Part shown: in pieces, positions 15,524 through 51,206 of the stretch
Layout: each line of letters begins with the position of its first letter
How positions within the stretch are numbered: the stretch's first letter is position 1
Source: Bacillota bacterium
GTDB taxonomy: Bacteria; Sysuimicrobiota; Sysuimicrobiia; Sysuimicrobiales; Segetimicrobiaceae
NCBI GenBank assembly: GCA_021324255.1
Contig: JAJPJL010000126.1
Coordinates: 29,855 to 93,854, forward strand
Direction: 5' to 3'
Length of the DNA stretch: 64,000 nt
Made by a program: the position numbers and the translations under genes
Notes under the pieces: generated by a model
Told to the model about the DNA's origin: nothing
The model's database searches: none
What the model saw: only the letters and a program-made list of their open reading frames with translations

Positions 15524-16807
15524 ATGACCGCAGCACACGCACGGGCAGCACTCATCGTGGTTGCAATCGCCGCGGGAATCGCCGTGGGCAGCGGGGCGGC
15601 CGTGGACGCGCCGGCTGCGCAGGCTGCGGCCGGATGGACTCGGGTGAGCATCGCGGGCTTGCTCGTGTCCGTCGACGCGGGGCGCCACACGCTGACGTTG
15701 GAGACCGCGCGCGGCCGGCTCCGGGTGCGGACCACCGCGTTCACGACGCTCGCAGTGGCGCCGTCGCGCGACGCTCCCGTCCGCCTGCCGGTGCGGTCGG
15801 TCGTGGAAGGCGTCCAATTGTCGGACGGTTCCGTGATCGCCGGCGTCGTGATCCTGGGCGGCGCCGGATCACCGCACGAGAGCGGCCGCCTGTCGGCGAC
15901 GCCCATCGGAACCTGGCTCGGCCAGCTCGATCCACCCGTCGGCGCCCACCAGACGGTCGCCTCGTTGTCGCAGGGTGAAGACGGGGTGCCGGCCGGGGTT
16001 CACTCCGGCGTCGATCCGCCGGTGAGGGATTTCTCGCCTCCCAAAGGCGCCGGCGGCAACGGCGGTGCGGGCGGCCCAGGCGGCGGCCGGAATTCGGTCA
16101 CCGGGCTCGGCAACGGCGGTCGCGGCGGCAACGGAGGGGACGGTGGCGACGCGTTCGGGCAGTTCAACGGGGGCAACGGCGGCGCGGGCGGCGCCGGGGG
16201 CGCGGGCGGAAACGACAACGGCGGCAACGGCGGCGGGGGCGGGAACGGCGGGGACGGCGGCGCGGCGGGGGCCGGGGTCGACGGCGGCAACGGCGGTGAT
16301 GGCGGCCAGGGCGGTGGCGGCGGCAACGGGGCGGTCGGGCCAAACGGCGGCAACGGCGGGCGCGGCGGCAACGGCGGCAATGGAGGCTCGTGCGCCGGCG
16401 CAGGGTGCTCGGGCGGCAACGGCGGCAACGGCGGCATGGGCGGCAACGGCGGCATGGGCGCCGCCGGCGGAGCCAACGGTAGCGGCGGAGCCGGCGGCAA
16501 CGGCGGCAATGGCGGTGGATGCGTCGGCGACGGATGCTCGGCCGGCAACGGCGGCAACCGCGGGCTCGGCGGTAGCGCCGGAGTGCCGACGGGGAGCCGC
16601 AGCGGGCAGGATGGTCAGAATGGCCAGAACGGCCAAAACGGACGGCCGGGGTCGGGCGGCGACGGTGGGAACGGCGGCAACGGGGGAAACGGTGGGAGCG
16701 CCTCGTGGGGCGGCGGCGCCGGCGGTTCGCCGGGCCCGGACGGCATGGGCGGCCGGGGCGGCGGCTGCGCGGGCAACGGGTGTTCTCCGGGCCGCGACGG
16801 CCACTGA
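15524..16807 (+). CDS. Secreted glycine/asparagine-rich repeat protein (PGRS-like GGNGG repeats with three CxGxGCS motifs)
   Basis: Signal peptide and a roughly 150-aa N-domain, followed by about 270 aa of GGNGG/GGAGG repeats with interspersed pairs of cysteines. Codon usage is consistent with the genome. Confidence 0.6.
   Translation: MTAAHARAALIVVAIAAGIAVGSGAAVDAPAAQAAAGWTRVSIAGLLVSVDAGRHTLTLETARGRLRVRTTAFTTLAVAPSRDAPVRLPVRSVVEGVQLSDGSVIAGVVILGGAGSPHESGRLSATPIGTWLGQLDPPVGAHQTVASLSQGEDGVPAGVHSGVDPPVRDFSPPKGAGGNGGAGGPGGGRNSVTGLGNGGRGGNGGDGGDAFGQFNGGNGGAGGAGGAGGNDNGGNGGGGGNGGDGGAAGAGVDGGNGGDGGQGGGGGNGAVGPNGGNGGRGGNGGNGGSCAGAGCSGGNGGNGGMGGNGGMGAAGGANGSGGAGGNGGNGGGCVGDGCSAGNGGNRGLGGSAGVPTGSRSGQDGQNGQNGQNGRPGSGGDGGNGGNGGNGGSASWGGGAGGSPGPDGMGGRGGGCAGNGCSPGRDGH
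16030..16800 (+). repeat. Coding tandem GC-rich repeat (units of GGCGGCAACGGCGGN)
   Basis: Short degenerate tandem units visible in the DNA. They correspond to the GGNGG protein repeats. Confidence 0.7.
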
Positions 16808-16853
16808 CGAGCGCCGCTGCGGCGCCATCGCGGGGCGCGCGCCGTGGTGGGGA

Positions 16854-17615
16854 TCAGGACCGCCCAGCGCTCCGGATCGTGCCCACGAGCCGGTAGCCTG
16901 ACGGCGTCAGCGTTGCGATGCGGAGCCGGCCGCCGACCAGCGGGTGAATCGGGCCGTCACGCCGCCCACGCACGAACCGGGCCACGCCGAGCGTGATCGT
17001 TCCGAGGAACCTCGCCAGATCGACGCCGTCTGTGAGGCTCATGTCGCGCAGCGGCACCACGAATTCCAGGTTGGCGACCTGCTCCCGGGTGGTCGCGTCC
17101 AGCGCCGACAGATCCATCGCCGGATCGATGCCCTTGAAGAGCCGGCTGATCGCGAGACCCTGGCCGCGCCAGTGAAAGTTCGGCGCGTCGGTGGTGGAGA
17201 GCAGGCGCCGCTCGCCGGCGGGCCACACGGCCTCGTAGATCCGGCCGACGCCGTCGGGGCCGTAGGCGCCGATCAGAAAGCCGACCGCCTCGCGCGGCGG
17301 CGCGTCCTCCCGTGCGGGTTCATCGGCGCCGAGAAAGGCGAGCAGCTCGTCGGCCACCGCCGCCGCGTCCCGCACGGCGCCGGCGGACCGGCCGGCGGCG
17401 TATCGCCCCGCGAGCGCCGCAATCGTGTGACCGCGGACGTGGCTCCGGCCGTGCGTCACCGCCGCGGCGTGCCGTCCCAGCGCGAACACCTTGTGCGCGC
17501 CGTCGGTCACCACCTCGGCCCACCGGTGATCCGCCGCGTCGCGCCATCGCGTCGTCCGGCTGTCCGCCGCGAGCACGATGCCCTCTGAGAGTGAGATGGC
17601 AATCGCAATCGTCAT
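16854..17615 (-). CDS. Anbu-like / proteasome-type Ntn-hydrolase (orphan 20S beta-like subunit)
   Basis: N-terminus MTIAIAISLSEGIVLAADSRTT, with Thr immediately after Met and the GxVLAxDSRTT pattern of proteasome beta/HslV/Anbu catalytic subunits. About 250 aa. A strong SD (AAGGAGG) precedes the ATG. Confidence 0.6.
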   Translation of the reverse strand: MTIAIAISLSEGIVLAADSRTTRWRDAADHRWAEVVTDGAHKVFALGRHAAAVTHGRSHVRGHTIAALAGRYAAGRSAGAVRDAAAVADELLAFLGADEPAREDAPPREAVGFLIGAYGPDGVGRIYEAVWPAGERRLLSTTDAPNFHWRGQGLAISRLFKGIDPAMDLSALDATTREQVANLEFVVPLRDMSLTDGVDLARFLGTITLGVARFVRGRRDGPIHPLVGGRLRIATLTPSGYRLVGTIRSAGRS

Positions 17616-17643
17616 GCACGGGCCTCCTTGTCCCGGGTCGCTT

Positions 17644-17675
17644 CAAGGAATTCTGGCCACGGGCCAGAATCCTTG
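17644..17675. promoter_or_regulatory. 32-bp near-perfect palindrome (CAAGGAATTCTGGCC-acg-GGCCAGAATCCTTG) in the divergent intergenic region
   Basis: Read directly from the sequence. It sits about 30-60 bp upstream of the Anbu-like start and about 75 bp upstream of the SLH porin start. Confidence 0.45.
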
Positions 17676-17749
17676 TGAGCCGGACGGGCACGCGTGACGC
17701 GCCACAGAGTCGCTCCAGGAGACGCCTTTCTTACGTGGATCGCATCGGC

Positions 17750-19579
17750 ATGGCGAGACGTGCGTCACGGCACGTGTGGCTTGCAGGCATCCTGATCCTC
17801 GCGGGCGCGCCGGCCGGCGGCCCCGCGGCGGCGCAACCGTTCTCGGACCGCGCCGCCCCGGCCTGGGTCTCGGCCGCGGTCCGCACGCTTGTCCGCGACG
17901 GCGTGGTGGCGGGGCCCGCGGCCGACGCGCAGGTCGCTCCGCTCCTCCGCGATGGTCGCGCTCACGTCACGCGCGCGGAGGTCGCGGTATGGCTCGCGCG
18001 CGTCCTCCCGTTGATTGCGAACCGGCTGCAGGCGTCTCCTCCCGCGGGTCCGATCTCGCGCGCCGACCTCGCCGCGCTGCGCCGCCTCATCGACGAATTT
18101 CAGGCCGAGCTGGCCTCGCTGGATGTCCTGACGGACGTGCTGCGGCGGCAGGTGACCGATCTCCAGCCGCTGCCGAGGCAGGTCAGGATCAGCGGCGATG
18201 TCCGTCTCCGGTACGAGCTCAGCCGCACGGCGCTCAACAACCCCGGGTTGGGCCCGATCGCGCCGTCGAGTGGCCAACCGCTCCTCAACCTGGCAAGCTT
18301 CCGGGCCCGCCTGGAGTTCGACGGCGGCCTGACGGATGACGCCCGGTTCCGGCTGCGGCTGACGACGTTCAACCAGATCGGGACGACCGCCGGGACGTTC
18401 AGCATCGTCAACGCGCCGCCGGCGGGCCAGCTCAACTCCATGTTCCTCCCGTTCAACAGCGGGCAGCAGGCGTCGATGACGATCATTGACATGTTCGAGT
18501 TCGACTGGGAGCGCGCGTTCGGGCTTCCGCTCGAGCTCCAAGCCGGCCGCCTCGGCGGCGATACGTGGTTGCCGCGTAACGGCGATCCACTGTACCCCGT
18601 GTCTCCGCCGCCCGGCCGCATCTCGCTCCTGCGGCTGGGCCCGATCGGACTCCTGCTCGACACCGCGAAGGATGTCATCGGCGAGCGCAGCCTAGAGACC
18701 TACGGGGTGGACGCGCTCGTGGCGAGCTACCGTCCCGACGGCTTCCGGGTGCAGGCGCTGCTCGGCGGGACGGGCGGCGTAACGTTCGCGGGTGGCAGGG
18801 TCGAGAGCGTGGTGGCGCCCGGCGTGACGGTCGGGGCCAATTTTCTCACCGACGCCTGCGACCCGGGCGGCGGCGTGAACAACGCGGAGCTCGTATCCGA
18901 CCTGACGCTGCTCGGCGCCGGCAAGGGCGTCGCCCAATGTTCCTTTGTCTGGTGGGGGGCGCAAAACGGATGGGTGCCGGCCGCCAATGCCGGCACGACG
19001 AGCCCGATCACCAACATTCCCGGGACCGGGTACGGCGCCGACATCGACGCGGCGCTCGCGCCCAACCTGCGCCTGCAGGGCGAGATCGCCTGGTGGTACG
19101 ACCCCGCGGCGCAGACGACGGGGCTCGGCTGGCAAGTGCAGGCGGTCCTGGGGCACGCGGGCGGGCGGACGCCCGCCGTGGTGCTCGGCTATCAATCGTT
19201 CGATTCGGCGTTCTATCCGGCGTACGGCGGCGCTGAGGATCCCGTCGTCGGCTTCATCTGGCCGGGCGGCTTCCGGGACGCGTTCGGGATCATCGACCTG
19301 CCGCCGCTGGCGGGGTGGACGCTGTCCGCCGGGTACGAGACCGGCACGTCGCTCGGCGTCGGCCCGCAGCCGGGGGCGGTCGGATTTGGCGGCCCGGCGT
19401 TTGCGAACGCCGTGTGCGAGAGCTGCCTCGGCTCCGGCCAGCCGTTCTCCGGCTGGCTCGCCGCGGCCGCCCACGCGGTCGGCGGGAACGCGACGGTGCG
19501 CCTCTACTACTATTCGTGGCAGCTGAACGGCGCCTCGCAGGACGACACGTACCGCGTAGAAATCGACTACCGCTTCTAA
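17750..19579 (+). CDS. SLH-domain outer-membrane beta-barrel protein (OmpM/Slp-like porin)
   Basis: Signal peptide, an SLH motif (FSDRAAPAWVSAAVRTLVRDGVVAG), a coiled-coil segment, then an amphipathic beta-rich C-terminal half ending in ...YRF. Confidence 0.6.
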   Translation: MARRASRHVWLAGILILAGAPAGGPAAAQPFSDRAAPAWVSAAVRTLVRDGVVAGPAADAQVAPLLRDGRAHVTRAEVAVWLARVLPLIANRLQASPPAGPISRADLAALRRLIDEFQAELASLDVLTDVLRRQVTDLQPLPRQVRISGDVRLRYELSRTALNNPGLGPIAPSSGQPLLNLASFRARLEFDGGLTDDARFRLRLTTFNQIGTTAGTFSIVNAPPAGQLNSMFLPFNSGQQASMTIIDMFEFDWERAFGLPLELQAGRLGGDTWLPRNGDPLYPVSPPPGRISLLRLGPIGLLLDTAKDVIGERSLETYGVDALVASYRPDGFRVQALLGGTGGVTFAGGRVESVVAPGVTVGANFLTDACDPGGGVNNAELVSDLTLLGAGKGVAQCSFVWWGAQNGWVPAANAGTTSPITNIPGTGYGADIDAALAPNLRLQGEIAWWYDPAAQTTGLGWQVQAVLGHAGGRTPAVVLGYQSFDSAFYPAYGGAEDPVVGFIWPGGFRDAFGIIDLPPLAGWTLSAGYETGTSLGVGPQPGAVGFGGPAFANAVCESCLGSGQPFSGWLAAAAHAVGGNATVRLYYYSWQLNGASQDDTYRVEIDYRF

Positions 19580-50468: not shown

Positions 50469-51206
50469 CTACGTGTTCCGGGAGCGCGTCGCGGGGTCCT
50501 GAGCACCGGCCCGCGTCGCGGCGCCGGCGCGCCGCCGAACCCCGAGCTTGTCGTAGATGTGCTCCAAATGCTTCTGCACGGTCCTCGGGCTGATGCGCAG
50601 GCCCGCCCCGATTTCGCGGTTCGTCTTGCCGGAGGCCACCAGCGATAGCACGTCGCGCTCCCGCGGATTGAGCCGGACATCGCCCGCGGCGTCGATCTGG
50701 CGCTGTGCGTCGACCAGATACGGATGCACGAGTTGCAGGAGTTCCAGGTCGCGCCCGGAAAAGTCCCGCGCCTGCCGGTCGAGCGTGACGCATCGAACGG
50801 TGCCCGCAGGCGCGGGCAGCGTCATGGCCATTTCCCATCGGATCCGCGCCGGCCGGTACAGCTCGCTGAACAGCCCCGTCCCGCTAAATGTGCGCATCGA
50901 CGTCATGTCGGTCATCCGGTGGGGACTGCCGTCGCCCGTTCGCATCTGGTGCAGGAACAACGGGTGGTCCCGGTAGTGACGGGTGAACGGGGTGCTCCCC
51001 TCCGGCAACATGGACGCCGGCACCGCGACGGTGCGGATCGCCCGCGAGGCGGGCTGCACCTCGTTGTAGCTCGTCATCTCGCACGGGATGAGGGTCCTGA
51101 GCCCCTCGAGCACCGCGGCCACGAAGGCGCCCTGCGCCGTGACGTGGCGCAGCCGCCACAAGAAGTCGAGCACGGCCCTGCCCTGGGTGATCGCCAAATG
51201 GTGCAC
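50469..51206 (-). CDS. LuxR family transcriptional regulator (C-terminal GerE-type HTH). The N-terminal extent is uncertain.
   Basis: C-terminus LNPRERDVLSLVASGKTNREIGAGLRISPRTVQKHLEHIYDKLGV. The GTG at 51206 has a GGAG upstream; the ATG at 51077 is an alternative. The ORF-track start at 51548 would overlap the plus-strand genes. Confidence 0.6.
   Translation of the reverse strand: MHHLAITQGRAVLDFLWRLRHVTAQGAFVAAVLEGLRTLIPCEMTSYNEVQPASRAIRTVAVPASMLPEGSTPFTRHYRDHPLFLHQMRTGDGSPHRMTDMTSMRTFSGTGLFSELYRPARIRWEMAMTLPAPAGTVRCVTLDRQARDFSGRDLELLQLVHPYLVDAQRQIDAAGDVRLNPRERDVLSLVASGKTNREIGAGLRISPRTVQKHLEHIYDKLGVRRRAGAATRAGAQDPATRSRNT

Follow-up and report, generated by a model that had tools for sequence, protein, structure and literature searches.

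The window analyzed here is the whole 64,000-nt stretch of contig JAJPJL010000126.1 (assembly GCA_021324255.1). It carries at positions 16854–17615, on the minus strand, a gene for a homologue of the N-terminal nucleophile (Ntn) hydrolases with the fold of the proteasome beta subunits. Judging from sequence comparisons, the encoded Ntn protein is a member of a sparse, unnamed and uncharacterised family that occurs in many bacterial phyla and in Methanobacterium. We favor, with moderate confidence, the reading that it is a cytoplasmic protease encoded by a single gene, and that a palindrome upstream of this gene most likely serves a dimeric factor as its binding site. The original prediction had described the gene as an orphan Anbu-like proteasome homologue; our analysis supports the proteasome-type assignment, but not the label “Anbu.”

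The gene, its fold, and its catalytic residues

16854–17615, minus strand: gene of the Ntn hydrolase homologue, proteasome-beta fold, 253 aa.
17623–17629, minus strand: Shine-Dalgarno sequence AAGGAGG of this gene, read from the sequence and kept in four of four orthologous spacers.
17610–17612, minus strand: codon of Thr2, the predicted nucleophile (Thr1 after removal of the initiator Met).
17562–17564, minus strand: codon of Asp18, equivalent to proteasome Asp17; invariant in the family alignment and aligned with the yeast beta1 motif GADSRTT.
17490–17492, minus strand: codon of Lys42, the counterpart of proteasome Lys33 at a position displaced by a hairpin extension of 8 residues; kept in 90% or more of the family alignment and aligned with yeast beta1.
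17448–17450, minus strand: codon of Gly56, the counterpart of Gly47 in the oxyanion hole; kept in 90% or more of the family alignment and aligned with yeast beta1.
17037–17132, minus strand: insertion between helices H3 and H4 with an extra helix (residues 162–193), taken from the secondary structure of the model.

The relationship to the proteasome subunits was revealed by a profile search with an alignment of 27 sequences of the Ntn family. Yeast 20S beta1 was matched at E = 4e-6, with the ADSRTT motif, Lys33 and Gly47 aligned, and 20 of the 27 members, when scanned singly, matched PF00227 at E ≤ 1 (best, 7e-7). The comparison figures of the structural model were highest for 20S beta subunits (20.0), followed by a designed Anbu (17.4), BPH (14.7), HslV (14.4) and connectase (14.3); other Ntn hydrolases (acid ceramidase, penicillin acylases) remained below 11. 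Foldseek was in agreement, matching beta subunits at E = 2e-9. The model contains the beta-sandwich core with flanking helices H1–H4 that defines the proteasome-like Ntn hydrolase superfamily (MEROPS T1 fold). The helices comprise residues 65–75 (H1), 84–96 (H2), 154–161 (H3) and 194–214 (H4), and the extra helix of the H3/H4 insertion comprises residues 174–181. Relative to the beta subunit, a hairpin longer by eight residues precedes Lys42 and lies beside the active site. The S3/S4 region is a beta hairpin, and the C-terminal end consists of strands 232–237 and 240–243 followed by a disordered tail.

The catalytic residues are in place. The alignment with yeast beta1 set T2, D18 and K42 of the protein opposite Thr1, Asp17 and Lys33, so that the triad, the absence of which would speak against a proteasome-type enzyme, is present; together with the fold match, this upholds the predicted proteasome-type Ntn protein. 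Arg20, which corresponds to Arg19 of yeast beta1, is also kept in at least 90% of the aligned sequences. Position 2 is Thr in the close clade (MT start), and most family members that start there begin with MT or MS. In relatives whose N-terminus is extended, a signal peptide is followed by a short propeptide, the final Gly of which stands directly before the Thr equivalent (HG|T, GG|T, QG|T); at such a G|T junction, beta subunits classically undergo autolysis. A free N-terminal Thr in the mature protein is suggested by the MT start and by the G|T propeptides found in relatives; because of the MT start and the HslV precedent, we infer that Met1 is removed by methionine aminopeptidase. The protein, a conserved relative of the proteasome catalytic subunits, is probably active.

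Despite the background of spurious open reading frames (ORFs), many of which overlap in the window because of its G+C content of 71%, the ORF at 16854–17615 is a genuine gene. Its length, given as about 253 aa in the original prediction, is exactly 253 aa, and the protein begins with MTIAIAISLSEGIVLAADSRTT. The ATG at 17615 is the earliest start possible downstream of the in-frame stop and is separated from the AAGGAGG sequence by a gap of 7 nt. Orthologues with 96, 89, and 69% identity were found on long contigs of metagenomes and metagenome-assembled genomes (MAGs), and the nearest MAG that carries an orthologue (89% identity) is labelled “Bacillota bacterium.” The gene is under purifying selection: the ratio of nonsynonymous to synonymous divergence (dN/dS) against the orthologues is 0.22–0.31, with a synonymous divergence (dS) of up to 0.93. 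No signal peptide was predicted for the protein.

The family is represented sparsely in the databases. The protein alone gave no match in Pfam, NCBIfam, PADLOC or PHROGs, and phmmer with the single sequence returned nothing significant from the PDB. A search of 5.8 billion proteins yielded only 26 relatives, the most distant of which have precomputed PF00227 matches; a full HMMER scan of 1.84 billion cluster representatives yielded 304 matches at E ≤ 1e-3, just one of them with more than 50% identity. A species-level genome scan (one genome per species), which was limited by its pattern, gave at least 132 matches, with the labels Chloroflexota, Acidobacteriota, Planctomycetota, Thermodesulfobacteriota, Omnitrophota, Caldiserica/Cryosericum, Methanobacterium and other taxa. 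The Ntn protein is an ordinary, though rare, uncharacterised protease gene product.

The evidence does not favor a position within Anbu. The family profile matched Anbu (5nyj) at E = 0.06 and over the first 49 residues only, so that the sequence is not nearer to Anbu than to other proteasome homologues and the “Anbu-like” label has to be given up in favor of a closer relationship with the 20S beta subunits. Anbu has a long C-terminal helix H5, which forms a coiled coil with the opposing subunit; this helix is absent from the model, which in turn carries extra insertions, among them that between H3 and H4. The Anbu operon comprises alpha-E, transglutaminase-like and ATP-grasp genes (Valas and Bourne, 2008; PMC3235984). 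As had been predicted, these partners are missing nearby: none of the three was found within 10 kb on each side in the orthologous loci L001–L006. Likewise, no proteasome alpha subunit, second proteasome-fold gene or AAA+ gene was found within 10 kb on either side of the orthologues. As regards an Anbu that has lost its operon partners and retained the assembly and function of Anbu, the weaker sequence and structure matches than those with beta subunits, the lack of the C-terminal helix and the lack of partner genes nearby all argue that the protein is not Anbu. This explanation is largely refuted, and we regard it as highly improbable.

The palindrome upstream of the protease gene

17644–17675, without strand: AT-rich imperfect palindrome, 32 bp, half-sites AAGGA(A)TTC.
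17750–19579, plus strand: OmpM-like divergent neighbor, 609 aa, with signal peptide, SLH domain, coiled coil, beta-barrel and YRF end.

The divergent spacer between the Ntn and porin genes is 134 bp long and contains the 32-bp palindrome CAAGGAATTCTGGCC-ACG-GGCCAGAATCCTTG of the original prediction, which we found again: its arms measure 15 and 14 nt, a single base is bulged, and the core pairs perfectly over 9 bp. The distance from its center is 45 bp to the Ntn ATG and about 90 bp to the porin ATG, both of which lie downstream of it; the edge is 28 nt upstream of the Ntn start codon and 14 nt upstream of the Shine-Dalgarno sequence. The G+C content of the palindrome is 47%, versus 71% in the window. 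Folding gives −22.7 kcal/mol for one strand and −24.7 kcal/mol for the other (z = −5.2 to −5.8), a stability that was not reached by any of 200 shuffles. The palindrome occurs once in the 64 kb, and in the related loci it occurs only at the orthologous position.

Conservation was assessed in an alignment of four distinct orthologous spacers, namely those of the window and of loci L001, L004 and L018. Invariant positions make up 28 of the 29 in the arms and 58 of the 118 in the remaining spacer (Fisher p = 5e-7, four spacers). The loop varies (CGT, CGC), as do the flanks, while the bulge is strictly conserved; in the arms, the sole substitution replaces G by A in the innermost pair of L004 and L018 and does no more than enlarge the loop. 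Because this invariance persists while the dS of the Ntn gene reaches 0.93, the arms are under purifying selection. A metagenome scan with the single Ntn protein found no further orthologous spacers. The inverted repeat of this promoter region has thus changed less than neutral evolution would predict, as is expected of an operator, and the comparison of the spacers points to an element that is conserved and probably regulatory.

In orthologues with about 50% protein identity, the long stem has been lost, but AGGAATTC-like half-sites remain upstream of the Ntn start. A AGGAATTC-like box (at most one mismatch) lies within 130 bp upstream of this start in 6 of 7 clade members, against 0.05 expected per region from a background of 0.46 per kb; the statistic was formed post hoc, on loci that are not all independent of one another. 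The box is also present in loci in which the divergent neighbor differs from the porin. In L092, the half-sites are arranged as GAGGATTC-N14-GAATCCTC, with a spacing similar to that of AAGGATTC-N13-GAATTCCTT in the window. The persistence of the half-sites without the stem, together with their presence next to neighbors other than the porin, favors a DNA site tied to the protease gene.

A palindrome that acts as RNA, as a stable stem-loop in the 5′ untranslated region (5′-UTR) of the protease or porin mRNA that stabilises the transcript or modulates its translation, is less probable in our estimation but deserves serious attention. The hairpin is strong on both strands (z below −5) and close to the Ntn start and its Shine-Dalgarno sequence, and the only arm change leaves the stem with a wider loop. 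Stabilising 5′ hairpins are, moreover, frequent on the mRNAs of abundant outer-membrane proteins, the ompA mRNA being one example. On the other hand, L007, L012 and L092 lack a full stem yet retain AGGAATTC-like half-sites in varying arrangement, which suits the recognition sequence of a protein better; in addition, compensatory changes are lacking, conservation of the bulge is strict, and the Rfam scan of 17400–17950 gave no match to any family.

The site might also serve the porin gene only, its adjacency to the protease gene being incidental. The porin and Ntn genes share the spacer in the window, L001, L004, L018 and L007, and envelope porins are commonly under tight transcriptional control. 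Nevertheless, L012, L092 and L093, with another gene as the divergent neighbor, have similar boxes ahead of the Ntn gene, and the palindrome is twice as near to the Ntn start as to the porin start; a role confined to the porin therefore seems decidedly unlikely.

A terminator was rejected, since the flanking genes diverge and there is no T-run. A repeated element similar to the repetitive extragenic palindromic (REP) sequences was rejected as well because of the single copy in 64 kb and the restriction to the orthologous site in related loci. To our knowledge, and on informal comparison, the palindrome does not fit the consensus of CIRCE, HAIR, the Cheo box or the NrdR box. Among the 25 longest inverted repeats listed for the window, the only other long perfect one with a short loop is a G+C-rich hairpin with 15-bp arms at 4391–4423, GAGGCCCCGCCCGGC-N3-GCCGGGCGGGGCCTC, which is possibly a terminator.

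Gene context and distant relatives

The divergent neighbor of the protease gene was identified in the original prediction as an SLH porin gene, and its product indeed matches the OmpM structures and the por_somb family. The SLH-domain OmpM structures of Veillonella (8bys/8bym) were matched at E = 2e-4 over the SLH domain, the stalk and the beginning of the barrel; the match to NCBIfam por_somb (E = 1e-9) has 37 bits, below the curated cut-off of 100. The signal peptide, SLH domain, coiled-coil stalk, beta-barrel and C-terminal aromatic residue are common to this porin, OmpM and the cyanobacterial SLH porins. Veillonella OmpM has about 430 aa, whereas the porin of the window is about 40% larger, and the barrel part is barely alignable. 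The presence of an OmpM-like porin in a lineage in which the nearest MAG is labelled “Bacillota” implies a diderm envelope with an SLH-tethered outer membrane.

Synteny is complete in the close subclade, which consists of the window, L001/L011, L004–L006 and L018, with the order NAGPA, SLT/TPR, glycine-rich protein, Ntn protein, porin (divergent), peptidase S9, GDPD and ABC transporter. In L007 (Ntn protein 53% identical), both outer flanks are different, and a porin with 50% identity is still the divergent neighbor. Since other neighbors lie upstream in L012, L092, L093 and L095, the pairing with the porin is lineage-restricted, and it is at best slight evidence for a functional link. The predicted compartments of the two proteins are also unlike, the porin being exported and the Ntn protein having no signal peptide.

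The glycine-rich protein of this order is encoded on the plus strand at 15524–16807, converging on the Ntn gene. It has 427 aa, a hydrophobic N-terminus and long glycine/asparagine repeats of the GGNGG type, and it gave no Pfam or NCBIfam match. In L001 and L004/L005, an unannotated gene of comparable length is found at the corresponding place; the proline-rich ORFs antisense to 15524–16807 are G+C artefacts.

In the sister subclade (about 50% identity), the Ntn gene is always followed on the same strand by a gene for a NarL/GerE-type response regulator:
L007, 8899–9570: NarL/GerE-type regulator.
L012, 1304–1975: NarL/GerE-type regulator.
L093, 1914–2618: NarL/GerE-type regulator.
L095, 1324–1998: NarL/GerE-type regulator.

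The regulators of L007, L012, L093/L094 and L095 share 65–71% identity. No orthologue of them was found in the window, where a weak helix-turn-helix match at 50541–50732 was the only result. In L095, a Trypsin_2 protease comes next after the regulator. The 2.3-kb locus L012 (DATEGY010000220.1), the Ntn protein of which is 48% identical to the query and is followed by the regulator as in L007, is labelled Gemmatimonadales; this bin assignment may be in error, or the Ntn–regulator pair may have moved by transfer.

In more distant relatives, a different context recurs. After clustering of all ORFs of 83 distant loci, at least 28 of these loci were found to read Ntn gene, small ORF, type II toxin. 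The small middle ORF encodes 65–110 aa and starts at or overlaps the stop codon of the Ntn gene, and 28 of the 34 ORFs in the third position match one of four unrelated type II toxin families (Fic/Doc, 14; PemK/MazF, 10; ParE, 3; PIN, 1).

Triad loci, first part: L014, L016, L021–L023, L025, L030, L032–L034, L048, L050, L052–L056, L060, L061.
Triad loci, second part: L064, L068, L074, L075, L077, L079, L083, L086, L089, L090.
Examples of middle ORFs: L075, 6853–7071; L087, 6834–7043; L027, 1303–1488; L035, 6842–7048; L089, 3954–4175.

The middle ORFs had no match among the Pfam families tested. Many of them share, regardless of the toxin type, the N-terminal motif T-x6-(D/T)W(L/F)-x5-hRhxA, which could be a recognition tag for the Ntn protein, and many end in W-x-x-L-S-D. 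In the neighbor-joining tree, the triad loci constitute two large branches from many phyla, and the window clade is a separate branch without triads. The toxin-linked genes L014:6001–6810 and L075:6001–6840 weakly match phrog_5990 (E = 4e-5 and 2e-3), a functionally uncharacterised phage protein family (profile of 427 positions), so that some relatives may be carried by phages.

We put forward only tentatively, and with some doubt, the possibility that the family consists of stand-alone threonine proteases that commonly control type II toxin–antitoxin modules, the copy in the window being an offshoot without a toxin–antitoxin pair. In such a protease-gated three-part system, the protease would recognise or cleave a tagged antitoxin; the copy in the window would have acquired a different specific substrate and come under a palindromic operator of its own, and in the sister subclade the gene sits ahead of that for the NarL-type response regulator. 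The recurrent triads and the shared motif of the middle ORFs speak for this possibility. However, the triad-bearing relatives are only 25–30% identical to the Ntn protein of the window, and a hidden Markov model of the N-terminal motif found no candidate in all reading frames of the window (best E, 0.5). A full-text literature search returned no paper linking proteasome homologues with antitoxins.

Further variation concerns export and size. In P0029, P0036, P0038, P0040, P0053, P0057, P0059 and P0018, a propeptide of about 25–50 aa ends at the G|T junction; the combination of signal peptide and G|T propeptide in these relatives implies exported, self-processing proteasome homologues. The version in Methanobacterium, the only archaeal group among the loci returned, has about 295 aa, a long insertion after helix H2 (the pore-loop site) and conserved synteny (L040, L042, L045, L046, L049, L057–L059, L063, L065, L071, L072, L082, L084, L088).

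Proposed mechanism and comparison with known systems

In the mechanism that we favor, methionine aminopeptidase would strip Met1 and expose Thr as the N-terminal nucleophile, which would then work with Asp18, Lys42 and the oxyanion hole at Gly56 in the manner of the 20S beta subunits and HslV; the equivalence of these residues has been established above, and the activity is predicted from it. In the proteasome, H3 and H4 connect the two beta rings with each other (PMC8665760), and because the insertion sits on these helices, a closed double ring may not form. The absence of partner genes nearby, the hairpin extension and the H3/H4 insertion make a stand-alone peptidase with narrow substrates likelier than a chambered machine fed by an unfoldase. 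The palindrome would be bound by a dimeric transcription factor, encoded elsewhere than in the window, that controls the protease gene and possibly the porin gene.

Several observations weigh against this interpretation. The proteasome residues Ser129, Asp166 and Ser169, which orient Thr1, are not conserved, and the motifs WRGQG and VGG are found instead; the family-specific invariant residues W149, G151, R158, G162, D196, G228 and G229 may, to judge from the alignment, take over this role. The Pfam and NCBIfam searches with the query alone were blank. No covariation is seen in the palindrome, because its arms never vary, and an RNA hairpin fits equally well; the site reads alike as a repressor operator, an activator site or a 5′-UTR hairpin. 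The sigma-70 promoter and terminator scan of 16500–18100 returned nothing in this lineage of 71% G+C. No regulator gene adjoins it, and the box statistic is subject to the restrictions given with it. Finally, connectase demonstrates that the proteasome fold can also be that of a ligase.

The last point raises the alternative that the Ntn protein is non-degradative, being a sequence-specific transpeptidase or ligase, or an enzyme that processes a single substrate, as in the case of connectase. We consider this unlikely: the two-helix S3/S4 insertion of connectase and its loss of H1/H2 are not seen, and no candidate substrate with a tag motif is encoded in the window.

The gene is rare but not surprising in itself and belongs with the uncharacterised proteasome-like Ntn hydrolases. 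Proteasome homologues beyond 20S, HslV, Anbu, BPH and connectase have been catalogued without an assigned function. With this locus, a well-supported member is added in which the catalytic residues are intact; its cis-element, which selection maintains, offers a handle for a regulator search. The recurrent contexts (toxin–antitoxin triads, the NarL-type regulator and exported propeptide forms) make the label “function unknown” experimentally approachable. Of greatest interest as a lead is the association with toxin–antitoxin genes, although this was seen in distant relatives and not for the gene of the window; if functional, it would mean a dedicated protease inside toxin–antitoxin modules instead of reliance on the housekeeping Lon and Clp.

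Compared with the 20S beta subunits (PF00227, MEROPS family T1), the window clade has neither an alpha-subunit gene nor a propeptide; the beta subunits lack the 8-residue hairpin extension before Lys33 and the 32-residue H3/H4 insertion and possess the three Thr1-orienting residues that the Ntn family has not conserved, and the query falls below every Pfam threshold. A 20S beta subunit proper was rejected, since the partner alpha-subunit gene, which in bacteria belongs to a Pup/Mpa context, is absent within 10 kb. HslV and BPH have about 175–185 aa, and the Ntn protein is much larger at 253 aa; HslV, a compact protein of about 175 aa without insertions, was rejected on this account and because no hslU is nearby. 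Connectase, which is defined by a two-helix insertion between S3 and S4 and the loss of H1/H2 (PMC8665760), was rejected because H1 and H2 are present and the two-helix lid is absent.

A close likeness is with some of the 22 uncharacterised proteasome homologues described by Fuchs, Alva and Lupas (2021; PMC8665760). Among these, the groups PMI-2 to PMI-6 (“Proteasome homolog with Multiple Insertions”) are defined by the H3/H4 insertion and are spread over many bacterial phyla and Euryarchaeota (PMC8665760). In the model of the Ntn protein, residues 162–193 form such an insertion between helices 154–161 and 194–214. Because of this insertion and the occurrence across bacterial phyla and Methanobacterium, we regard the protein as probably of the PMI type and the family, likened by the published description, as probably one of the PMI groups of Fuchs et al.; a look-up of the cluster members of the relatives gave only “hypothetical protein” and no accession matching that study. 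The PMI groups, especially the PMI-2 type, resemble the Ntn family in catalytic residues, H3/H4 insertion, phylum range and the lack of an AAA+ partner. That survey reported no propeptides except in beta subunits and HslV and found the gene context uninformative (Fuchs et al., 2021; PMC8665760), whereas the Ntn family differs by its exported members with G|T propeptides and by its strong link with toxin genes.

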